Shown one piece after another: positions 1-14,006 of a stretch of 14,006 nucleotides of DNA. The notes beneath the pieces were generated by a model that saw only the letters and a list, made by a program, of their open reading frames with translations, did not search any database and was not told where the DNA came from. Location of the stretch: the NCBI RefSeq assembly GCF_003334255.1, contig NZ_QOWU01000080.1; one strand, written 5' to 3'. Made by a program: the position numbers and the translations under genes. Numbering within the stretch: position 1 is the stretch's first letter; each line of letters begins with the position of its first letter. The stretch comes from Escherichia coli. GTDB lineage: Bacteria; Pseudomonadota; Gammaproteobacteria; Enterobacterales; Enterobacteriaceae.

Positions 1-216
1 GACCCGCCACCCCACGATGTATCCGGCAAACACATCAATGATGAACGCCACATAGACGAAGCCCCGCCATGTGCTGACGTAAGTAAAATCAGCCACCCAC
101 AGCTGGTCAGGTCGTTCTGCCACGAACTGACGGTTTACGTGGTCGCCTGCGGCAACGGCTTTCCGGCTGATGGTCGTACGGACCTTTTTACCCCGGAGAA
201 CACCGGCAAGTCCCAT
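1..216 (-). pseudogene. IS3-family transposase OrfB (DDE integrase) internal fragment; runs off the window start and lacks orfA and the OrfB N-terminus
   Basis: Minus-strand translation of 1-216 gives MGLAGVLRGKKVRTTISRKAVAAGDHVNRQFVAERPDQLWVADFTYVSTWRGFVYVAFIIDVFAGYIVGWRV, matching the IS3-family OrfB core; an in-frame stop lies just upstream and no orfA follows. Confidence 0.6.
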
Positions 217-289
217 AACCGCCATGTCGCAGTCGTCAGTCTGCTACTCGAATGGCGTAACGTAGCCATTTTTCTGGCCCCACACGTAG

Positions 290-820
290 TCAGGCTTTCC
301 ACGTAGAATGCAGCAATTTTTCATCAGTCAGGCTCATAATCAACCCCACTTTTTTTTCTTTATACAGCAAGAAATCAGCACGTCCAGTACATCCCTCTTC
401 CGCTTCTTGCCAGGTGGCCACCTGAGTGCGGAACTCATCATCAAACACAGACTTATCAGGCCATACCACCAGAGTTTTACCACGATAACTAATCTCAAAA
501 ATAAACTGTCCCCCTAAAGAGAAAGGGGCATCAGGGTGCCTTAAAGTAGGGTTTTGCAGGCAACGTCCTTCACGTACAGCGTGAGAAAGTATCTCTACAC
601 AATCCACAATTCCCGGACCGGGAAAACCCAGACTCCAGTAAAGCTCGCGGCGCATCACCGGTTGTTGCGGAGACAACAGAGAAAAAGCGTAGCGGCTCAC
701 ACGAATCATTAGTGCAGCAGCAATAACATTAGCGTTAGTCGTATATTTTAATAAATCCTGGCGCGTCAGAGTGATATCACCATCTTGATCCCGTACGGTT
801 ACGGTTAATTCGCTCATCAA
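290..820 (-). CDS. Hypothetical protein (176 aa), last gene of the ABC operon; paralog of the 3210-3767 product
   Basis: Long ORF directly abutting the binding-protein gene. Shares the motifs SLLSPQ, RREL, FPGxGxxDCxE and GxFxFExSYRxK with the 185-aa ORF. Confidence 0.6.
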
Positions 821-1762
821 TTACTGCTCCATAGCCTGTGGTAAAACAATATTGCTAACGTCAATTTCGTTGCGAATCATTCCATTTTCAATCATAAATT
901 GGATATCTTCTTTCATGCTGGTTATATCGTCCTGATTCAGACGCTGAGTGAAGTGAGACCGATTATACAATTTCTGTGCATCCTCAACGCTAATGCCCTG
1001 TACTTTTGCGCCTAATGCTATGGCTTCCGACTGATTTTTTTCTATCCATGTACTTGCCTCATCATGGGCAGCAATGACGACTTTAATCCAGTTCGGGTGT
1101 TTTTTAACTACCTTATCACTGGATGCCATGACCAATTTAGGTACAACCAAACCACTGGCGGTCGTCAGTACTTTAGCTCCTTCCTGTTCTGCTTTAATCA
1201 CCATGGTGGCAGCCAATAGTGCGGCATCAACCTGACTACTTTGTAAAGCCGCAAATGCCTGTGGCAAATCCATTTGAACAAACTGAACATCGTTCATGCT
1301 TAAACCATTTTTCACCAAAGCAGCCACCAACGTCTGATGTAAAACCGTGCCTTTAGGCCCTGCAATCTTTTTACCTTTTAATCCGGCAATAGAATTAACA
1401 CCATTCTTAGCCCCTACAATGGCAAAAGTATCGGTAGGACGAGAAACACCAGCGATGATCATCACAGGATTACCCTCGCTATTAGACATTAAAACTGAAG
1501 AAGTATTCATTACCCCTGCAATATCAAGATCACCGCTAGCTAGCGCCTGAGCCTGTTTGGCTCCGGAAGTAATTTCGTGCCATTCCACGTTTAATCCCAG
1601 CGATTCAGCCTGCTTTTCCAACAGGTTGTGCTCCTTCATTACAATCATTTGCAGATTAAATGGTGATTTAACATAGCTGATATCCAGCGTTTTATCATCC
1701 GCATGGGCCAGTCCAGAACTCAACAATGCAGAAAACAACGTGGTCAGAAGTATCTTTTTCAT
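821..1762 (-). CDS. ABC transporter periplasmic substrate-binding protein, NMT1/THI5 (SsuA/TauA-like) family
   Basis: 313 aa with an N-terminal signal peptide (MKKILLTTLFSALLSSGLAHA) and overall NMT1/SsuA-like character; sits in an operon with ABC ATPase and permease genes. Confidence 0.8.
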   Translation of the reverse strand: MKKILLTTLFSALLSSGLAHADDKTLDISYVKSPFNLQMIVMKEHNLLEKQAESLGLNVEWHEITSGAKQAQALASGDLDIAGVMNTSSVLMSNSEGNPVMIIAGVSRPTDTFAIVGAKNGVNSIAGLKGKKIAGPKGTVLHQTLVAALVKNGLSMNDVQFVQMDLPQAFAALQSSQVDAALLAATMVIKAEQEGAKVLTTASGLVVPKLVMASSDKVVKKHPNWIKVVIAAHDEASTWIEKNQSEAIALGAKVQGISVEDAQKLYNRSHFTQRLNQDDITSMKEDIQFMIENGMIRNEIDVSNIVLPQAMEQ

Positions 1763-1786
1763 AGTTCATCCTTATTCATAAGCAGT

Positions 1787-2455
1787 TTATAAATGGGTCA
1801 GTATTCGTTGTTTTAATTCTGTGTGGGAAATATCATGATGGCGGCGGTATACCACCGCAATTCGTCCTTGACTCATAACTAAAATCTGCTGACCAATAGT
1901 TATCGCTTCATTGAGGTCATGAGTGACAAACAAACAACTAATGTTTTGATGAGTAATCAGTCGAATTAACATTTCTTGCTGTTCTGACCGCGTGATGGCA
2001 TCCAGGGCTGCAAAAGGTTCATCCATCAGTAATACTTGTGGTTTTTGCAGAAGAGCTCTTGCGATTCCTACTCGCTGCGCCATACCACCAGAAAGTTCAT
2101 GAGGCATCAGGGAATAACTTTCTCCCAGTTGAACCTGTTGTAATACTTCAGCAATTTTGGCTTGTTTAATTTTTCTGCTACATAAAAATGGCAAAGCTAA
2201 TGCCAGATTTTCAGCTACCGTTAACCATGGTAATAAACGTGGTTCCTGAAACACCATGGCACACTGTGATGCAGAGATGTTGACTGTTCCGCTATCCGGT
2301 TTAATCAAACCTGCTACAATACGCAATAAAGTGGATTTTCCTCCACCAGAAGGGCCGAGCAAGCAAATAATTTCTCCCGGCGGCAGCGAAAGTGAGACAT
2401 CGATCAATACCTGTTTTTGCTGATAGCTTTTATTAATATGAGATAATGCTATCAT
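1787..2455 (-). CDS. ABC transporter ATP-binding protein (NitT/TauT family)
   Basis: Walker A GPSGGGKST, ABC signature LSGGMAQRVGIARAL, Walker B LLMDEPFAALD, H-loop FVTHD. Confidence 0.9.
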   Translation of the reverse strand: MIALSHINKSYQQKQVLIDVSLSLPPGEIICLLGPSGGGKSTLLRIVAGLIKPDSGTVNISASQCAMVFQEPRLLPWLTVAENLALALPFLCSRKIKQAKIAEVLQQVQLGESYSLMPHELSGGMAQRVGIARALLQKPQVLLMDEPFAALDAITRSEQQEMLIRLITHQNISCLFVTHDLNEAITIGQQILVMSQGRIAVVYRRHHDISHTELKQRILTHL

Positions 2456-3213
2456 CAGGTTGTTACCTCCGGAAAACGACGACGTAATAGCAGCACCAAT
2501 GAGCGATAAAATAGCGTATCCAATAGCCAGCCAATTAAACCAATGGTTAAAATACCCACTATTACAGCATCAGTACGCATCATCTCTTGTGAATCAATAA
2601 TCAAGTATCCCAGTCCACTGCTGGCAGCGATCAATTCTGCGCCAATTAATGCTCGCCAGCTATAACCAAAAGCCAGACGAAAACCAGTAACCACAGAAGG
2701 AGTGGCGCTTGGAATTACAATCGCCAACAGATAGCGTAAAGGTGAAAGATTCAGGCTAATGGCCAATTCCTTATGGGCTGTACTGACGCGACGCAGTCCA
2801 TCACGAGTGTTAAGAAATATGGGAAACACCGAGGCCAAAACAATAATCGAGAGTTGTGTCGTCTCCCCAATACCCAACCATAAAATCAATAATGGCGTCA
2901 TGGCCAATGGGGGGATCATACGAAAGAGTGCCAAAGGCGCGGACAATAACTGTTCCAGCCATGAGTAACGAGCAACCAAACCGGCCAACATCGTTCCAAG
3001 ACAACAACTCAGACAAAACCCTTCAAACACTCGTAATAATGAAGTGGATATATGACGAGGCAATGCGCCAATTTGCCACATATTTACGGCGGAATAAAAC
3101 ACCGTTATGGGTGATGGTAGTAAATAAGCAGAGATTAACTCCAAACTTGATAACAATTGCCAGTAAATCAATAGTAATATTGGTGTCAGCAACGGTCGCC
3201 AATAGCGCATCAC
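2455..3213 (-). CDS. ABC transporter permease (NitT/TauT family)
   Basis: 252-aa hydrophobic multi-helix protein; its stop overlaps the ATPase start and its start overlaps the stop of the upstream 185-aa ORF, suggesting translational coupling. Confidence 0.85.
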   Translation of the reverse strand: MMRYWRPLLTPILLLIYWQLLSSLELISAYLLPSPITVFYSAVNMWQIGALPRHISTSLLRVFEGFCLSCCLGTMLAGLVARYSWLEQLLSAPLALFRMIPPLAMTPLLILWLGIGETTQLSIIVLASVFPIFLNTRDGLRRVSTAHKELAISLNLSPLRYLLAIVIPSATPSVVTGFRLAFGYSWRALIGAELIAASSGLGYLIIDSQEMMRTDAVIVGILTIGLIGWLLDTLFYRSLVLLLRRRFPEVTT

Positions 3214-3767
3214 AATACCTGTATTGAATCCATTGGTGAGACGGTTAACAGCGTATTAGCTAACTGATATTTAGCCACCATCCACTGTCGTTGAACTTCT
3301 GGTGTTGCATCTGGCTGCTTACTTGCACGCCCTATTTTCAAAAATTCAGTAGTTGGCTGCCCGCCTACCGGAGCTAATGATACTTTTTTACTACGATAAC
3401 TAAATTCAAAATAGAAACGTCCAGTAAGACCTTGCTGTGCTTCGGTTTGGTCAAAGTCGACATCTAATATAAAACGATTTTCCGACACCATGCGGGTTAC
3501 CAACTCAAAACAATCACGGGCCCCCCTCCCCGGAAAGGCTGTAAATAATGCTAATTCCCGACGTTGCAGGGGCTCATCCTGCGGTGATAGCAATGAAATA
3601 GCCCTTTGTAGTAACCGAAATCCCAGTACTACGCCACCAACAGCATCATACCCATGATAATTGAAGGCATCCTGAACCGAGAAAGAAAAAAGCTGATGAT
3701 TATCTGCAACGTTTAGGGATGGCATAACCCATTGGGATACAGGGATAAGACCTGGATTAGTACTCAT
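3210..3767 (-). CDS. Hypothetical protein (185 aa), first gene of the ABC operon; paralog of the 290-820 product
   Basis: ORF overlaps the permease start by 4 bp; shares conserved blocks with the 176-aa ORF (see finding). Confidence 0.6.
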   Translation of the reverse strand: MSTNPGLIPVSQWVMPSLNVADNHQLFSFSVQDAFNYHGYDAVGGVVLGFRLLQRAISLLSPQDEPLQRRELALFTAFPGRGARDCFELVTRMVSENRFILDVDFDQTEAQQGLTGRFYFEFSYRSKKVSLAPVGGQPTTEFLKIGRASKQPDATPEVQRQWMVAKYQLANTLLTVSPMDSIQVL

Positions 3768-3857
3768 GTCAACCGCCTTTCTCTTTTTATAGTAAGAGTT
3801 ATTCCCTCATGTCGATTCTAGATACAAATACAAACAACATCAATTCTCATTCCCTCT

Positions 3858-4143
3858 TCAGGTTATTTGCCTCGCTGTTTTTCTCACTGTCTCCGTTATG
3901 GTGTACACCACCTCTTCCAGTAACCGACACTTCGCCGAACTCAGGAAACCGTAGTACCTCACCATACGGAACCCCTGAGGTAGCCAGGAGGCTGCAAATC
4001 GGGGTGTGGCAGAATATGAGCTTTCAGAGTAACCATCCAGAATGAGTTCCCATGTCACACAACCTGGAGCACCAGAAAGTCCACACCAGAATGGTGAAAG
4101 AGGTTCTGAAAGCCGTCGCCAGAGCCAATAATCACCCTTATCA
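3858..4143 (-). pseudogene. Possible IS91-family (Y2 rolling-circle) transposase C-terminal remnant
   Basis: Minus-strand translation contains LPQGFRMVRYYGFLSSAKCRLL, resembling the conserved C-terminal block of IS91-family transposases as recalled (LPKGF.RIRHYGFLAN); ends abruptly at the IR at 4144. Confidence 0.3.
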
Positions 4144-4181
4144 GGGGTTCCGTGGGAATTTCTGCGATAACACCCGCTAAG
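4144..4181 (+). repeat. Tn3-family 38-bp terminal inverted repeat (left)
   Basis: GGGGTTCCGTGGGAATTTCTGCGATAACACCCGCTAAG. Confidence 0.65.
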
Positions 4182-4318
4182 CGATTCCTCCCTGACGGAA
4201 ATCACTTGTTTTCCGTCAGGTCCTGCAGTTGAAGAAAATTGAATCCATAAATCTGTGATTTTTTGCGTGACAAACCCTGTCGGAATGAGAAACTGTACGG
4301 AAACTTCAATTTTAAGGT

Positions 4319-4504
4319 TTGTCGTACATTCGCAGCCAGGGGATCATTATACCGGAAGAGCTCTTGTCCAGTGTATCACCACTACCATGGGGTCATATCT
4401 CACTCACTGGAGATTACCTGTGGAACGAAATTGACCATCCCCTTGAACGATACAGGCCACTTCGTACTAATCGCTTCAATCCAAAGAACTTCACTTTTCC
4501 TTAG
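4319..4504 (+). pseudogene. tnpA: Tn3-family transposase TnpA C-terminal remnant
   Basis: Translation ends PLPWGHISLTGDYLWNEIDHPLERYRPLRTNRF, resembling the extreme C-terminus of Tn3-family TnpA (LGWEHINLTGDYLW...RPLRP as recalled); stop codon lies inside the right IR, as in Tn3-family transposons. Confidence 0.5.
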
Positions 4505-4537
4505 CGTGTGTTATCGCAGAAATGCCCACGGAACGCC
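4500..4537 (-). repeat. Tn3-family 38-bp terminal inverted repeat (right)
   Basis: Reverse complement reads GGCGTTCCGTGGGCATTTCTGCGATAACACACGCTAAG. Confidence 0.65.
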
Positions 4538-4879
4538 GTTATGGCCGTGAATGTGCCGACGACCTGGATTAATTCTGGTATGAGTGAGTTTGACAGCCGG
4601 TTGTTTGCAGCCATTAACGATATGCTGCTGGATATGCTGGCCGCTGTTGCCAGAAGGGACTATGAACAACGGCGGGAACGCCAGAAACAGGGGATAGAGA
4701 AAGCAAGGAAAGACGGCAAATATAAAGGGCGTAAACCTAATCAAGCCAGACATGATGCAATTATCAGGTTGATAGAAAGTGGCAGCTCCTGGACACAGGT
4801 ACAGAAGGTGCTAGGGTGCAGCCGCGGCACAATCAGTAGCGCAATAAAACGTAAATCCCGGCAATCCTCCGGTGAGTAG
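4508..4879 (+). pseudogene. Serine recombinase (resolvase/invertase) C-terminal fragment; catalytic N-terminal domain absent
   Basis: Contains LLDMLAAVARRDYEQRRERQKQGIEKARKDGKYKGRKP followed by an HTH-like tail (SWTQVQKVLGCSRGTISSAIKR); convincing similarity begins around 4570-4580; no S-T-x-x-Q catalytic region upstream. Confidence 0.5.
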
Positions 4880-4994
4880 GGTAGGGTGAGCTCAATAAAC
4901 TGGCTGACGTTATTTATTAGGGAGGTGCTGAGGTGGATATTTTTAAAAAGCAAATTGAATGTTGTAACTAATGAATATCAAAATAAAAGGCCGC

Positions 4995-5174
4995 TTACGC
5001 GACCTCAGCCTTTTGCGGTTTTGGCTTGGTGATATACCACGATAGACAACCGACAATAAAACTCATGAACATTCCAGTAAAACGATCATCGATGCCTGGA
5101 AACAGGCAACCGACAAACATCGCAACAGGGAAAGGAAGAAGTAAACAGCGCCCCAAAATGCTCATAAAATCCAT
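4995..5174 (-). CDS. Small hydrophobic membrane protein (59 aa), unknown function
   Basis: ATG at 5174 is preceded by AGGAGG with a 4-nt spacer; product MDFMSILGRCLLLPFPVAMFVGCLFPGIDDRFTGMFMSFIVGCLSWYITKPKPQKAEVA. The six-frame track extends it to a GTG at 5210 inside a hairpin, which I consider unlikely. Confidence 0.4.
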   Translation of the reverse strand: MDFMSILGRCLLLPFPVAMFVGCLFPGIDDRFTGMFMSFIVGCLSWYITKPKPQKAEVA

Positions 5175-5192
5175 AAATCCTCCTTTGTTAAA

Positions 5193-5219
5193 GGGCAGGA
5201 AGCGGTGCACTTCCTGCCC
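5193..5219 (-). terminator. GC-rich hairpin, probable terminator of the toxin transcript (possibly bidirectional)
   Basis: 10-bp perfect stem GGGCAGGAAG / CTTCCTGCCC with a 7-nt loop, about 20 nt downstream of the toxin stop; followed by TTTAA on the minus strand. Confidence 0.5.
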
Positions 5220-5240
5220 TTAGTTACGTTTCCGCAGTCA

Positions 5241-5336
5241 TCAATCGATGAACTGACGGATCAGTTCCAGAACTGCAATCAGCGCGTTTGCAACGGCGAC
5301 CACAGCCCTGAGAACGATGATTAACAGGTTAATCAT
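5241..5336 (-). CDS. Candidate type I toxin: 31-aa hydrophobic peptide, DinQ/TisB-like
   Basis: Not in the ORF track (below size cutoff). Translates to MINLLIIVLRAVVAVANALIAVLELIRQFID; GGAG sits 6 nt upstream of the ATG; resembles DinQ as recalled (shared IIVL and ALIA.LELIR blocks). Confidence 0.5.
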   Translation of the reverse strand: MINLLIIVLRAVVAVANALIAVLELIRQFID

Positions 5337-5413
5337 CCGTTTCTCCAGGTTGATACTGGAGGAAGTTGCCGTTGCTTGCTCATACATCGCCTGTCACAAC
5401 GGCTCTCTCACAT

Positions 5414-5453
5414 TGTTGGATGTAGAGTACCTTCCCCCTGCCAGAGCACTGAA
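5414..5453 (+). repeat. Copy 1 of a ~40-bp repeat, within the putative toxin leader
   Basis: TGTTGGATGTAGAGTACCTTCCCCCTGCCAGAGC... is roughly 85% identical to the copy at 5658-5697. Confidence 0.6.
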
Positions 5454-5623
5454 CACAGCACCACCTGTTTGTTCAGCCAGGGCTTTAATTCGTTCATACC
5501 CAGATAGCGCAGGGTTTAGAAGCAAGGGAGGCACACTGTACAGCGCCAACACAAAGATTATACAGATGCACGCATAAAATTCATTTAAAGAAATGGCCAT
5601 TGACAGACAATCTGAAGTCAAAC

Positions 5624-5650
5624 TAGACAACTGGTGTCTAGTGCCATAAT
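5624..5650 (+). promoter_or_regulatory. Putative sigma70 promoter for the small RNA
   Basis: TAGACA (5624-5629), 15-nt spacer, extended -10 TGcCATAAT (5642-5650); alternative -10 TAATAT at 5647-5652 with a 17-nt spacer. Confidence 0.3.
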
Positions 5651-5656
5651 ATTGTG

Positions 5657-5748
5657 GATGTTGGATGTAGAGTATCTTCCTCCAGTCAGAGCCACCAACT
5701 CAGGACTGGAAAACACGAAAAAGCCCGATTACCAGTCGGGTTTTTTTG
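5657..5748 (+). ncRNA. Candidate ~90-nt small RNA (AgrB-like antitoxin), divergent from the toxin gene
   Basis: Promoter-like elements upstream and a strong intrinsic terminator at the 3' end; body contains repeat copy 2, which is imperfectly complementary to the minus-strand toxin transcript at copy 1. Confidence 0.4.
5722..5748 (+). terminator. Rho-independent terminator
   Basis: Stem GCCCGA / TCGGGT with loop TTACCAG, followed by seven T; A-tract upstream, so possibly bidirectional. Confidence 0.6.
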
Positions 5749-6149
5749 TGCCTGTCGTTCGACTGTTCTTCCGTTTTTTCCCTTCATTTGGGGGATTTTC
5801 TTTCAGTTTTTTTGTTAAGTCCAATGCTGCCGGTCGCGTTGGCCAACAGATCAATGCCGTTATCGGCGTTTCCATTAATCCTTTTTTTCAGTAAGTTGCA
5901 GCACAAAAGATGATTAAAAAGCTATCAGTTTTTTTGATGGATACAGTAGCGGCGGTACGCTGCGTGAAATCTGAGGTTTTCGGGTAGGATTGGTCGCGAG
6001 AATTTACGAGAGAGCGACGGGCGGTTTCTGCACTGAGACAAGATACAACCGTTCTTTTTTTTCCCCTTCACGCCGTAGCTGAGCGATCTCGTCTCTGTTA
6101 CGCTGAAGTTCAATGATAGTCGTAATATTTAACTCTTTACCTCTTTCGT

Positions 6150-6166
6150 GGTATACCAGGTATACC
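6150..6166 (+). promoter_or_regulatory. Tandem 8-bp palindromes GGTATACC-a-GGTATACC, candidate operator upstream of the EamA gene
   Basis: Two identical self-complementary octamers separated by 1 nt, about 17 nt upstream of the start codon and just 5' of the AGGAGG ribosome-binding site. Confidence 0.3.
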
Positions 6167-6182
6167 GAAAAAAGGAGGCGTG

Positions 6183-7070
6183 ATGAACAACCAAAACTAT
6201 TTTTTAGTCCGTTGTATGTACGTAATTCTGATGGGACTAGGTTTTCCTATCATGAGATATATGAGTTTAAACTTTGACACATTAAATAACAATGCTATCA
6301 GATTTATCTCTGGAGGTGTTATTTTTTGCATTGTCTGCTTATTAAAGTACAATAACCACTTAAAAAATATAAATATTAAAACAATACTACTGCTTTTTGT
6401 TCTTTCTATTTTCATGACATGTAACATGTTCTTTTTTATTAATGGAATAAAGCATACATCAGCCTTATCAGGGAGTATTTTTAGTATATTAGCAATGCCA
6501 TTAGGTATTCTTGTCGCCAGTTTATTTTTTATTGACGAACGAGAAAGAGCACTTAGCTATAAATTTATAACAGGTTCATTAATTGCAATTATTGGATCAT
6601 TTATTTTTGTTTTTAATGGTTACTCTTTGGATTCCGGCTCATTTAGTTATACAGGCTTTATATTTTTAACCATCGCAATTTGCATTCAATCGATACAAAA
6701 TGTCATTGTTAAAATTGTAGCACAATACCTTCCCGCAATTGTAATTAGTGCGTCAACAGCAACAATTTCAGGGTTAATGTTTTTATTATTAGCAATAAAA
6801 ACAGGCGTTATCACAGAATTATCAGTAACATCCAAAGAATTATTAATATATTTGGTTCTTGCTGGCATATATGGAATGATGACAGGTATGCTTATGGCAT
6901 TTTACATAGTAAAAACACAAGGGGTAACTATTTTTAATATAACTCAATTACTAATCCCCGTATCAACAGGAATTTTTGGATACATCACTTTAGGTGAAAA
7001 AGTTGATCTTATTCAGGCAACAGGAGCAGTGATCATCATTGCTGGCTGTATTTTTGCAACAAAGCGATAA
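6183..7070 (+). CDS. DMT-superfamily (EamA-like) integral membrane transporter
   Basis: ~295 aa, about 10 predicted hydrophobic helices in two repeated halves; AGGAGG 4 nt upstream of ATG 6183 (the track's 6180 start is a GTG one codon upstream); very AT-rich. Confidence 0.8.
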   Translation: MNNQNYFLVRCMYVILMGLGFPIMRYMSLNFDTLNNNAIRFISGGVIFCIVCLLKYNNHLKNINIKTILLLFVLSIFMTCNMFFFINGIKHTSALSGSIFSILAMPLGILVASLFFIDERERALSYKFITGSLIAIIGSFIFVFNGYSLDSGSFSYTGFIFLTIAICIQSIQNVIVKIVAQYLPAIVISASTATISGLMFLLLAIKTGVITELSVTSKELLIYLVLAGIYGMMTGMLMAFYIVKTQGVTIFNITQLLIPVSTGIFGYITLGEKVDLIQATGAVIIIAGCIFATKR

Positions 7071-8916: not shown

Positions 8917-9141
8917 ATGTTTACATGTAACTATAGCCATGCTCGCGATAACCTGGCCTCGTTGCTCGAGCTGGCGGTTGATGAAAATCAGCCAGTTGAG
9001 ATTCAGCGCCGTAAAGGTGGCGCAGCTGTACTGGTTGATAAAGACGCTTTTGAACGATACCGTAAAGCGGCTCTTGATGCTGAGTTTGCTGAGATCATGC
9101 AAAGTCATGGGACGGCCTATACGGAGCTTTCTAAGCGATGA
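8917..9141 (+). CDS. phd: Phd-family antitoxin
   Basis: 74 aa, MFTCNYSHARDNLASLLELAVDENQPVEIQRRKGGAAVLVDKDAFERYRKAALDAEFAEIM..., closely resembling P1 Phd as recalled; GAGGA 6 nt upstream; stop overlaps the doc start (ATGA). Confidence 0.85.
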   Translation: MFTCNYSHARDNLASLLELAVDENQPVEIQRRKGGAAVLVDKDAFERYRKAALDAEFAEIMQSHGTAYTELSKR

Positions 9142-9524
9142 AATTCGTTAGTTCACAGGAAGTGATTGAGTTTCATGACCGCTTGATTTCGCGTGATGGT
9201 GGCGTGGCGGGTATGCCAGAACCCGGTCGCGCTGACGCGATCATTCATCGTGTTTTGAACATGTATCATTATGAAGGTGTGACAGATATTATGGATCTGG
9301 CTGCCGTGTATTTAGTTGCTATTGCTCGTGGTCACATTTTCAACGATGCAAATAAGCGAACAGCCTTGTTTGTTGCACAGGTTTTTTTAAAACGGAATGG
9401 TGTACATATTATTAGTTCACGTATTTCGTTTGATGAAATGCAAATTATCGCTTTGAATGCTGCAACAGGAGAATATAACTGGAAGATGGTTTCTGACCAT
9501 CTTAAAGCCATTATTCTAAATTAG
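9138..9524 (+). CDS. doc: Doc toxin (Fic/Doc family)
   Basis: 128 aa with the Doc-type motif HIFNDANKRTA and GMPEPGRADAII, resembling P1 Doc; translationally coupled to phd. Confidence 0.9.
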   Translation: MKFVSSQEVIEFHDRLISRDGGVAGMPEPGRADAIIHRVLNMYHYEGVTDIMDLAAVYLVAIARGHIFNDANKRTALFVAQVFLKRNGVHIISSRISFDEMQIIALNAATGEYNWKMVSDHLKAIILN

Positions 9525-10034: not shown

Positions 10035-10120
10035 TATACCAGGCAAGACGCATTCGCCTTGCCCGTAAATATCTGAACGGTAAAAAGGTTATGGAAGAAA
10101 CCGGGGAAAATACGCCCCCG

Positions 10121-10399
10121 TCAGCGTAAGGATTTCTTTTGCAGCTCCAGAGACTCCAGTTTTTTACGCAAATCCTCTCTTTTTTTGGCATCTCTGGTGC
10201 CTGCCAGTTTAGCTCTCAACTCATCGATCTGAAGCTGTATCTCCAGCCTTTTACTGAACATTTTCTGTCTGGCATTAACATCAGCAACAATGCCGTTTTT
10301 TGTCTTCTCGGCCTTTTGTTGAAAAACATTGCTGTCCGCATGACTGGCGACCGAAGCAGAAAGCACACTAAAAAGCAGGACTGGCACACATTTTTTCAC
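10121..10399 (-). CDS. Small secreted protein (92 aa) with a signal peptide and a charged coiled-coil-like mature region
   Basis: GTG start with AGGAA 8 nt upstream; MKKCVPVLLFSVLSASVASHA signal-like N-terminus followed by a K/E/R/L-rich sequence. Confidence 0.5.
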   Translation of the reverse strand: MKKCVPVLLFSVLSASVASHADSNVFQQKAEKTKNGIVADVNARQKMFSKRLEIQLQIDELRAKLAGTRDAKKREDLRKKLESLELQKKSLR

Positions 10400-10501
10400 G
10401 GGATTATTCCTGACTCATTGACCATCAAATCACATTGGGGTAAACCGACGTATGATAAGAGATACTCTTCGGAGATATAACCCCCTGAGTATCAGGATGA
10501 A

Positions 10502-10539
10502 AAACGCAAGGAGATGTTTATGGGGTCCGCTTGGAAAAC
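10502..10539 (+). repeat. Tn3-family 38-bp terminal IR (Tn21/Tn501-like), left end of the tnpR-tnpA transposon
   Basis: GGGGTCCGCTTGGAAAACGGAAAATATCCCACGCTAAG; compare the Tn21 IR as recalled (GAAAACGGAAAATA...CACGCTAAG). Lies just beyond the tnpR stop. Confidence 0.6.
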
Positions 10540-10567: not shown

Positions 10568-11158
10568 CTATACAGTAACAGTTTGCTGTTTCGCTCTAAC
10601 TCTCAGAATTGTTTGCCGTGTGGTTCGGAATTCCCTGGCAATAGCACTTATACTTGCCCCAGACTTAATGCGTTCGAGTACCTTCTGTTTTTGTTCTTCA
10701 TTTAATACCGGTGGGCGACCAAAACGTTTTCCTGCATCCCGTGCTCTTGCTATCCCTGAATAAGTTCGTTCAAGTAAAAGATCTCGTTCAAATTCAGCGA
10801 CCGCTGAAATCACTTGCATTGTCATTTTTCCTGCCGGACTGGTCAGATCAACACCACCTAATGCCAGGCAATGCACCCTGATGCCAGATTCGGTCAGTTG
10901 CTCCACTGTTTTCCTGATATCCATTGCATTACGACCGAGGCGATCCAGTTTTGTGACTATCAATACATCGCCACTTTCCAGACGATCAAGCAACCGGTTA
11001 AAACTAGGACGTTCACTGGCTGCTACTGAGCCACTAATTTGTTCTTCGATTATTCGTTGGGGTCTGACGTTAAAACCCGCGCTTTCGATTTCCCGACGTT
11101 GATTTTCGGTCGTCTGTTCCAGAGTGGAAACCCGACAATAGGCAAAAATTCGAGACAT
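10568..11158 (-). CDS. tnpR: Serine recombinase, Tn3-family resolvase TnpR
   Basis: 196 aa; N-terminal catalytic motif [22 protein letters not shown]-helix region, C-terminal HTH; divergent from tnpA. Confidence 0.9.
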
Positions 11159-11318
11159 AGTGAGATCTTCTGTACGAAATAGGTGTACATATTATAATGC
11201 ATGTCCGAAAGTAATTTCGCTGACTTTCGGATATATCTGTTTAACAATGTCCGAAACCGGTCGTTTTCGGTCACAACAAATCCATAACATATGAAAACTT
11301 TACACGAGGGAAGCATTC
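11159..11318. promoter_or_regulatory. res site region with divergent tnpR/tnpA promoters
   Basis: Repeated imperfect inverted half-sites (TGTCCGAAAGTA...GACTTTCGGATA; TGTCCGAAACC...TTTTCGGTCACA) and a palindromic ATTATAAT giving a -10-like hexamer on both strands. Confidence 0.5.
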
Positions 11319-13037
11319 ATGCCACGGCGACAAATACTGAGTAGTGAAGAGCAAGCTCGCCTGCTGGTTATACCAGATGATGAAATTATTCTGACCAGAA
11401 TGTGTTTTCTTTGTGATAAAGATATTGCTCTCATTAATAAGCACCGGCGTCCAGCTAATCGCCTGGGCTTTGCGGTATTACTCTGTTACCTGCGTGGGCC
11501 TGGATTTGTTCCGGACAAAAATAATGTTCCCCACTGTGGCGTTGTATCCAGAATTGCTTCAAGACTGAAGCTTCAGCCCGATTTATGGCATGAATATGCA
11601 GCCAGAGAGCAAACCCGCTGGGAGCATCTGGCTGAACTTTATCGCTACCTGAAATTATCTCCGTTCAGCCGAACTCTGCAAAAAGACTGCATTCGGCATC
11701 TGCATTCCTATGCCATGCGAACAGATAAAGGATTTACTCTGGCGGAGGAAATGCTCAGTTGGCTACATAACAATAATGTTATTTTCCCGTCGGTTGATGT
11801 GATCGAACGGACGCTTGCCGAAGCCGTCACACTTGCTGACAGATCTGTTTTTTCGGCACTTACGACACAACTGGGAAAGCAGCATAGATCTGCACTCGAC
11901 AGCCTGCTCATATCAGAAGGGGAACAACCTTCCCGACTTGCGTGGCTACTTCAGCCTCCCGGTAAAATTAACGGTAAAAACGTGCTGCAACATATCGATC
12001 GACTTAATTCTATCACCGCGCTGGAATTACCTGATGGTATTGAGCTTTCCGTTCACCAGAACAAATTACTCAAACTGGCGCGTGAGGGCCGAAAAATGAG
12101 CAGCAGAGATCTGGCAAAATTCACCGATATCAGACGTTACGCTACGCTGGTTTGTGTCATTCAGGAAGCCAGAGCAACATTGACTGATGAAGTTATCGAG
12201 CTACACGAACGCATTATGGGCGGTCTGTTCAGCCAGGCAAAACGCACACAAGCCGAGAGGCTTCAGTTAACAGGCAAACTTATCCAGAGCAAGTTAAGAC
12301 AATATGTTACTGTCGGTCAGGCGCTACTGCATGCCAGAAAGTCAGGTGAAGATCCCTGGGCCGCGATAGAAGATGTTATTCCCAGGCAGGAGTTCGTCAA
12401 CAGCCTGGAAGAAACACAGTTGCTGTCCCGTAAAGGTAATTTCGATCCTCTTCACCTGATCACCGAAAAATACAGCACACTTCGAAAATACGCTCCACGA
12501 ATGTTGTCAGCATTGCAGTTTGTAGCGACACCTGCGGCGCAGCCGCTCAGCGATGCACTGGATACTATAAGGGAAATATACCGTAAGCAGCTTCGTAACG
12601 TTCCGCCTACAGCGCCAACAGCATTTATTCCTGAAAGCTGGCGAAAACTGGTATTAACGCCTTCAGGCATCAATCGAAAATACTATGAGTTTTGTGTACT
12701 GAATGAACTCAAGGGGGCGTTACGTTCCGGAGATATTTGGGTAAAAGGGTCGCGTCGTTACAGAAATTTTGATGATTATCTTATCCCGGTCACTGAATTT
12801 GATAAATCCCGACAAAATGACCAGTTACAACTGGCTGTGCAGACTGATTGCCATGCATATCTTCAGGCCCGTATGACGCTTCTTGCATCTCGTCTGGAAG
12901 AAGTTAACGCAATGGCTCTTGCCGGTGAGCTGCCGGATGTTGATATTTCAGATAAAGGAGTGAAAATCACTCCGCTGGAGAACGGGGTTCTGAGGTGTAC
13001 TGGCAATAGCGGACACTACCATTTGTTCTTTTTTTAA
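11319..13037 (+). pseudogene. tnpA: Tn3-family transposase TnpA, N-terminal ~557 aa only; interrupted by IS insertion at about 12990
   Basis: N-terminus MPRRQILSSEEQARLL...RPANRLGFAVLLCYLR closely resembles Tn3-family TnpA; full-length TnpA is about 1000 aa. The last ~15 codons (LRCTGNSGHYHLFFF) are read from the IS end. Confidence 0.85.
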
Positions 13038-14006
13038 GCAGCCATCTGATGATATTTTTCCCTGAAGGCTGCCGGGGAGATATTCCCCAGACGAGAGTGA
13101 CGACGCTGACGATTGTAGAAAATCTCAATGTATTCCCGTATTACTGAGATGGCTTCATCCCGGTTATTAAAACGATAGTGGCTCAGGCTCTCATTTTTCA
13201 GCGTTCCCCAGAAGCTTTCCATCGGAGCGTTGTCGTAACAGTTACCTTTACGCGACATTGATGTTTTCAGACCAAACTGCTCCTGTATGACCCGGTAATC
13301 GTATGCGCAGTACTGTGAACCTCGATCAGAGTGGTGGATTAGCCCGGCAGGTGGGCGCTGGCTCCTGAGCGCCATAAACAGGGCTTTACCTGTCAGCTCT
13401 TTTGTCATGCGCTCTCCCATGGCGTAGCCGACAATTTCGCACGTATAAACATCTTTGATGCCAGCGAGGTACAACCATCCCTCCTGTGTGGCAACATACG
13501 TCAGGTCCGCCACCCAGACCTGATTTGGTGCTGTAGGAGCGAACGTCTGGTTCAGCAGATTTGGCGCAACTGGCAGATTGTGGTTCGAGTTCGTAGTCGC
13601 TCTGAACTTGCGTTTCTGCTTACAGCGTAGCCTTAGCTCCTTACGAAGACGTGCCAGTTGGTCACGACCAACGATGATGCCATTCTCTGCCAGCTCCGTC
13701 TGGAGCCGCCGGGTTCCATATGTTTCGCGAGTGCGGATATGTGCCACCTTAATCTCCAGTTTTAGCCGCTCATCACTTTGTTTTCTGTCTGAGGGTTCAT
13801 GCTGTACCCAGTTGTAATAACCGCTCCTGGATACACCAAATACCTGACACATCGCTTCAATGGGAAATTGTTGTCGCCATTGTTCGATTAACGCGTATTT
13901 TTCAGCGACTCCTGTGCAAAATACGCTGTTGTAGATTCAATCTGTCAATGCAACACCCCTTTCAATTATCTCTTTCGGTGTTTTGAACTTCAGTGTCTTT
14001 CTCGGT
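12991..14006 (-). mobile_element. IS3-family insertion sequence (3' part with intact orfB; orfA apparently disrupted or absent), runs off the window
   Basis: IS terminus at 12991 (TGAGGTGTACTGGCAATAGCGGACAC) resembles IS3 ends as recalled; orfB intact; only ~17 codons of an orfA-like C-terminus (TAYFAQESLKNTR) precede stops in every frame. Confidence 0.7.
13034..13852 (-). CDS. IS3-family transposase OrfB (DDE integrase)
   Basis: 272 aa with VSRSGYYNW near the N-terminus, WVADLTYV, HHSDRGSQY and CYDNAPMESFWGTLK (DDE catalytic core). Confidence 0.85.
   Translation of the reverse strand: MCQVFGVSRSGYYNWVQHEPSDRKQSDERLKLEIKVAHIRTRETYGTRRLQTELAENGIIVGRDQLARLRKELRLRCKQKRKFRATTNSNHNLPVAPNLLNQTFAPTAPNQVWVADLTYVATQEGWLYLAGIKDVYTCEIVGYAMGERMTKELTGKALFMALRSQRPPAGLIHHSDRGSQYCAYDYRVIQEQFGLKTSMSRKGNCYDNAPMESFWGTLKNESLSHYRFNNRDEAISVIREYIEIFYNRQRRHSRLGNISPAAFREKYHQMAA

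Follow-up and report, generated by a model that had tools for sequence, protein, structure and literature searches.

The insertion sequences IS1294 and IS1294b use a 5′-GTTC target at oriIS and, at terIS, a 5′-GTTC cleavage site together with one subterminal palindrome; they generate no target duplication and are often found inserted in Tn2 (PMC13181058; PMC6052338). Read on the other strand, the target and terIS cleavage tetranucleotides are GAAC (PMC13181058). In the IS91-like element ISEc37, the 395-residue transposase TnpA carries the Pfam domains Zn_Tnp_IS91 (residues 18-104) and Y2_Tnp (residues 142-320), with the HUH motif at residues 157-161 and the tyrosine pair (Y2), YFGSY, at 249-253. 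A third relevant system is a 3779-bp Tn3-family transposon in E. coli plasmid pSCU-106-3 (L009, 574-4352), which is organized as IRL-tnpR-tnpA-IRR and has a TATAT duplication on both sides.

Remnants of these three kinds of element lie next to one another in a 14,006-nucleotide stretch of an Escherichia coli contig (NZ_QOWU01000080.1; hereafter, the window). We read positions 3851-4879 as stacked, inactive fragments of mobile elements on an E. coli plasmid of IncK type that belongs to the pECOED lineage, without a working gene or element among them, and put the probability of this reading at roughly 0.85. Window positions 3700-4700 are 100% identical to NZ_CP060058.1 and 99.9% identical to pECOED (NC_011754.1, IncK2/Z), and only six near-identical plasmids in PLSDB carry the arrangement. 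The segments were delimited by blastn against complete relatives, and their boundaries and identities are read directly from those alignments. Local blastn split positions 3851-4144 into two pieces, 3851-3976 and 3979-4144, that derive from different IS91-family elements on opposite strands; the first-pass annotation had fused them into one transposase "tail" extending from 3858 to 4143. The debris as a whole belongs to known families and is a routine case of nested mobile elements, with nothing new in kind.

The first piece (3851-3976, minus strand) is an internal relic of an IS91-family (ISEc37/IS91-like) tnpA and corresponds to approximately residues 303-346 of TnpA. Its peptide was identical to residues 306-344 of ISEc37 TnpA at 34 of 39 positions (pairwise BLASTP, E = 1e-20), and its DNA was 90.5% identical by blastn (87% at the protein level) over ISEc37 tnpA codons 303-346 (L002, 3866-3991; 126 bp; E ~1e-45). 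The protein search against IS91-family transposases that the first-pass annotation had proposed thus bears out its attribution of the block LPQGFRMVRYYGFLSSAKCR to a rolling-circle (HUH/Y2, IS91-family) transposase gene. Among domain models, Pfam Y2_Tnp gave only E = 0.013 over its last ~20 model positions, and NCBIfam transpos_IS91 (NF033538) gave E = 1.7e-4 over residues 69-109 of the surrounding ORF, with a score of 20.7 bits that falls far under the 125-bit cutoff because the scrap is so short. Other IS91-like copies, including one named IS91 by PGAP, were 84-87% identical to the DNA. The segment was matched by 1178 plasmid records in PLSDB, the best of which outside the source lineage reached 92.1%; since no outside copy goes beyond about 92%, the scrap represents an isoform that is either old or divergent.

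Homology to tnpA stops at 3976 in the five relatives compared directly and among the matches listed. The scrap has no start codon, Zn-binding domain, HUH motif, or Y2 motif, as it covers only residues 306-344 at the protein level, and its final ~50 codons are gone, as are both IS ends. Homology ends inside tnpA on both sides, so neither an oriIS beside a GTTC/CTTG target nor a terIS accompanies it, and no IS91-like end sequence was present in 3768-3850. Compared with ISEc37 and IS91, the relic is only 126 bp long, is devoid of orf121, terIS, and oriIS, and has a nonsense change at Trp345. The in-frame stop (TGA, 3858-3860, minus strand) occupies the position of the Trp345 codon, TGG, in ISEc37 (ACCTGA in the window versus ACCTGG), and the DNA homology ends 7 nt beyond it. 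Past the point where the window reads "QIT*", the ISEc37 frame continues as ...QITWRGMYQRLLK... for 51 more residues, which rules out a natural C-terminus at 3858. Because ISEc37 reads through and the homology ends 7 nt later, the stop is a mutation (TGG>TGA), with the natural C-terminus and the oriIS end absent; the label "tail" therefore does not suit this internal 126-bp piece. At 3850/3851, the scrap is joined to DNA that lies upstream of an ABC-transporter operon.

The second piece (3979-4143/4144, plus strand) is the terIS-proximal end of an IS1294-type IS91-family element, comprising element positions 8-173 and cut on its right side by a Tn3-type inverted repeat (IR). It is 97% identical (3979-4144) to positions 3998-4163 of L007, where the complete element occupies 1713 bp (3991-5703), and the segment occurs in 722 plasmids at 96-98% identity. 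In the intact L007 element, a 90-aa ORF overlaps, in the same orientation, the gene for a 402-aa IS91-family TnpA (NF033538, E = 5e-93); this overlap was seen in both L007 and L012. Seven independent flanks (L003 twice, L006, L007, L008, L011, and L012) all meet the element at GAACCACGGCAGCCTGGCGGCTGC, and in these seven different flanks the IS1294-type end starts GAACCACGGCAGCC. The complete copy in L007 lies inside a Tn3 tnpA, where its right end, ...TTTCCTATACGT, is followed by a single GAAC target and no duplication. Since the ends of this copy, its GAAC target, and the lack of a duplication match the published properties of IS1294, we assign the window fragment to the IS1294 type, a name given from structure and literature descriptions; the database sources name the transposase only "IS91 family."

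Like IS1294 and IS1294b, the 1713-bp parent begins with GAAC and a subterminal palindrome, ends ...TTTCCTATACGT beside a GAAC target, encodes an IS91-family TnpA (402 aa), and is located, duplication-free, in Tn2/Tn3. Unlike them, the window keeps only the first ~10% of the element, and the cleavage tetranucleotide and the outer terIS stem are gone. Positions 1-7 of the element (GAACCAC), which include the cleavage tetranucleotide, are absent, and the subterminal palindrome has degraded to GTAGCC-AGGA-GGCTGC at 3980-3995; the hairpin predicted for this end has -4.5 kcal/mol (z -0.1), whereas that of the canonical copy has -12.3 kcal/mol (z -4.2). Positions 4052-4144 (plus strand) retain 31 codons from the start of the 90-aa ORF, which in IS1294-type elements lies upstream of tnpA and overlaps it; all 31 are identical to those of the L007 ORF (4071-4340). 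This ORF had no NCBIfam match and is hypothetical in every database source. The remainder of the element gave 0 matches elsewhere in the window, and pECOED has a single place that matches the segment. The element truncated at 4144 is thus of the IS1294 type, on the plus strand, and is cut at its own position 173, in the small upstream ORF. Separately, on the ETEC plasmid NZ_CP023348 (L003), inverted IS1294-type terIS ends (85-239 and 2998-3162) flank the heat-labile enterotoxin genes eltAB, and one of these copies is broken by an IS91-like element inserted beside GAAC.

The two pieces meet in the sequence ...CACCATACG-GAAC-CCCT-GA-GGTAGCCAGGAGGCTGC..., in which homology to tnpA ends at 3976, IS1294-type homology begins at 3979, and the 2 nt between them (GA, 3977-3978) can be assigned to neither element. 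Within the IS91-like relic, 7 nt before the start of the IS1294-type homology, positions 3969-3972 (plus strand) read GAAC, identical to the tetranucleotide that IS1294 targets and at which its terIS is cleaved (5′-GTTC on the other strand). A canonical insertion would give ...CATACG-GAACCACGGCAGCC..., whereas the window has ...CATACG-GAACCCCTGAGGTAGCC...; the canonical junction forms for this GAAC are CATACGGAACCACGG and CACCATACGGAACCACGGCAGCC. Thus, the initial 7 nt of the IS have been lost or altered, and the palindrome carries three substitutions. When the canonical IS1294-into-IS91 junction was used as a synthetic query against PLSDB, only the six source-lineage plasmids matched, and none had the canonical version; the partial hits H210, H212, and pAPEC-O2-ColV reflected chance flank similarity. 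No match to the variant terIS, GGTAGCCAGGAGGCTGCAAATCGG, turned up among 100,044 species genomes.

For this junction, decay of an IS1294 insertion and illegitimate joining at a deletion are about equally likely sources, because the join falls within 7 nt of the true IS terminus and beside the preferred tetranucleotide. That the junction is an endpoint of illegitimate recombination or deletion unrelated to IS1294 transposition, with the GAAC there by coincidence, has a probability just short of one half in our estimation. It accounts for the loss of the first 7 nt of the IS end, and both the 3850/3851 boundary and the internal junction of the Tn3-type mini-element described below are likewise plain deletion joints; however, a random breakpoint in a 1.7-kb element would fall this close to the terminus with a chance of only ~1%. 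The closeness of the break is, conversely, what favors a true transposition of an IS1294-type element into the IS91-like gene at the 3969-3972 GAAC, after which small local mutations (AC>CCTGA and the three substitutions) would have damaged terIS. The tetranucleotide is the one that IS1294 targets and cleaves, GAACC is common to both sequences, and variants of the palindrome loop are known elsewhere, for example in L008. Yet the 4 nt after GAAC (CCCT) fit the IS91-like gene and not the IS end, and neither the canonical junction in PLSDB nor the variant end in the species genomes was found, so that we hold transposition to be plausible at somewhat under even odds.

To the right of the IS1294-type fragment is a non-autonomous Tn3-family element of 394 bp (4144-4537, plus strand), bounded by IRL (4144-4181) and IRR (4500-4537). 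The IR arms, of which the first-pass annotation had named the one at 4144, are 38 bp long, 92% complementary, and of the form GGGG...TAAG; 0 such matches are expected by chance, and the window holds no further copies of the IR beyond the pair. These terminal IRs have the ~38-bp length of the Tn3 family. A 5-bp target duplication is lacking, the flanks being TATCA to the left and GTTAT to the right. Of the genes typical of the family, which encode a DDE transposase (TnpA) and may include a resolvase, the element keeps just the final ~175 bp of tnpA. Aligned to the 3779-bp parent, the mini-element retains its left 186 bp and right 213 bp at 96.6-99.5% identity; L005 matches the left part at 99.5% identity, and 3′ ends of Tn3-family tnpA genes match the right part at 99.1%. 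Also retained is the ~150-bp stretch from IRL to the start codon of tnpR; it contains a 14-bp inverted repeat at 4191-4220 and presumably corresponds to the res region. It leads to a deletion junction at 4325-4329 with a 5-nt TACAT microhomology, followed by the end of tnpA and IRR; tnpR and the rest of tnpA were lost in this 3.4-kb internal deletion. Unlike Tn3-derived miniature elements (TIMEs/MITEs), this is a one-off internal-deletion derivative and not a propagated MITE family, because only the 6 near-identical plasmids carry it.

The IRR in turn cuts the 5′ side of a plasmid resolvase (serine recombinase) gene, of which the 3′ fragment, 113 codons plus stop, occupies 4538-4879 (plus strand). 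Its 342 bp are 93.9% identical to the 3′-terminal 342 bp of a 645-bp recombinase gene (L002, 2698-3342). As the two flanks, TATCA and GTTAT, differ and the right flank is a resolvase gene, the two ends of the mini-element come from different insertion sites; presumably, either two Tn copies recombined or an adjacent deletion brought the ends together. The missing duplication and the flanks from unrelated genes rule out a simple Tn3-type insertion. The earlier proposal that a Tn3-type element had inserted into an older IS91-like element therefore survives in part: an older element of the IS91 family is indeed truncated by a Tn3-family end, although the element so cut is the second, IS1294-type one in the opposite orientation, and no simple insertion with a duplication took place. 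Nor is the tnpA scrap truncated exactly at the IR at 4144, as had been supposed; it ends at 3976, 167 bp short of it.

The order and mechanism of the joins in 3851-4879 are what we infer from these alignments, and the order of events is only partly determinable; searches for intermediate structures returned none. An IS1294-type element would have inserted in, or become joined to, the IS91-like tnpA beside GAAC, and a Tn3-family element would then have entered the IS1294-type element. One flank of the transposon may have been replaced through recombination between Tn copies or an adjacent deletion, which would explain the absent target duplication. A 3.4-kb internal deletion at the TACAT microhomology could then have produced the mini-element, and a separate deletion may have removed the 3′ portion of the IS91-like gene, bringing the remainder up against the ABC-transporter module at 3850/3851.

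A different course of events would have the IS1294-type copy, with its terIS cleavage site and outer stem already lost, move by read-through and bring the DNA adjoining its terIS, namely the IS91 scrap and the 3.6-kb ABC-transporter module, into this plasmid lineage. The loss of those terIS features would leave only one-ended rolling-circle transposition open to such a copy. We regard this capture as improbable and unsupported: the left border of the module, at 226/227, meets an internal IS629 fragment and has no GAAC.

The block that first drew attention to the region is found in the minus-strand translation, within an ORF of 115 aa (3858-4205) whose translation includes ...RFAASWLPQGFRMVRYYGFLSSAKCRLLEEVVYTITETVRKTARQIT*. 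The block LPQGFRMVRYYGFLSSAKCR is encoded by 3924-3983, and its first two residues (L and P) come from the IS1294-type element and the junction, not from the IS91 tnpA. For the 75 in-frame codons upstream of the tnpA homology, comparison with the transposase gave no similarity (E = 0.81). The ORF is a chimera: read antisense, it crosses the Tn3 IR and then the IS1294-type end before entering the IS91 scrap, where it ends at the nonsense mutation. One 3′ tail spanning 3858 to 4143, belonging to a transposase gene of the IS91 family and severed at 4144 when a miniature Tn3 element inserted, could draw on the unbroken minus-strand frame from 4205 to 3861 and on the NCBIfam IS91 alignment, which reaches slightly upstream of the DNA boundary (ORF residues 69-109), and is nevertheless hardly credible, being refuted as a continuous tnpA by the 3976 boundary in every IS91-like tnpA compared, the 97% identity of 3979-4144 to a different element on the other strand, and the upstream residues without similarity, with the ~50 natural codons past the apparent stop and the lack of a target duplication around the mini-element also against it.

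RefSeq already records all of the pieces as partial pseudogenes. In the identical plasmid, PGAP annotates partial pseudogenes at 3861-3977 (minus strand; both termini missing), 4052-4162 (plus strand; C-terminus missing), and 4319-4504 (plus strand; N-terminus missing), together with a partial recombinase family protein at 4538-4879 (plus strand; N-terminus missing). This independent parse agrees with our four pieces, the first three of which it labels only "hypothetical protein." The relevance of the present analysis is therefore to annotation only, with no new biology: a plausible-looking 115-aa ORF turns out to be a three-element chimera, and the RefSeq pseudogenes can now be named as an IS91-like ΔtnpA, an IS1294-type terIS end with ΔorfA, a Tn3-family ΔtnpA, and a Δresolvase. 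The locus adds to the cases in which insertions of the IS91 and Tn3 families are nested within the accessory region of IncK/IncF-type plasmids.

Another IS91-like element lies ~2 kb to the left of the window in pECOED (L001, 1-1246). It is nearly complete, 89% identical to ISEc37, inverted with respect to the scrap, and annotated as frameshifted in NZ_CP060058. As blastn gave only 90.8% identity between this copy and 3851-3976, the scrap is not a recent duplicate of it. The IS91-like sequences bracket a segment with AAA-ATPase, pentapeptide-repeat, IS629-fragment, and ABC-module parts, and their oriIS-side ends face inward. Window positions 1-226 hold the IS629 (IS3 family) fragment, an internal piece of ORF2 that is 99.6% identical to Shigella/E. 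coli copies and forms the left border of the ABC module. The module itself (~227-3850) was found in PLSDB only in the six pECOED-like plasmids. Its NrtA/SsuA-type ABC transporter operon (821-3213) is bracketed by genes for paralogous uncharacterized proteins of 176 aa (290-820, minus strand) and 185 aa (3210-3767, minus strand), which share 35% identity over 117 aa (E = 2e-19); the 185-aa paralogue had no Pfam match, and neither paralogue had a significant NCBIfam match.

A second, unrelated Tn3-family unit at 10568-13852 shares no IR with the mini-element at 4144. It has divergent tnpR (10568-11158, minus strand) and tnpA (11319-13037, plus strand; NF033527, E = 7e-162) genes, and of the latter ~570 codons remain before an IS3-family transposase gene (13034-13852, minus strand) truncates it. 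A 497-bp stretch (10035-10530) is 95% identical to the colicin K plasmid pSCU-106-3 (L009, 6484-6980), where the matching region consists of hypothetical genes adjoining an Exc2-family lipoprotein gene; the same plasmid bears the parent Tn3-family element. Among other features of the window, RefSeq annotates the DinQ-like type I toxin dqlB at 5241-5336 (minus strand) and a Phd/Doc toxin-antitoxin pair at ~8917-9524 (plus strand). The genes for a DMT transporter and a Gfo/Idh/MocA oxidoreductase lie in a segment of low GC content (0.36 at 6001-6400).
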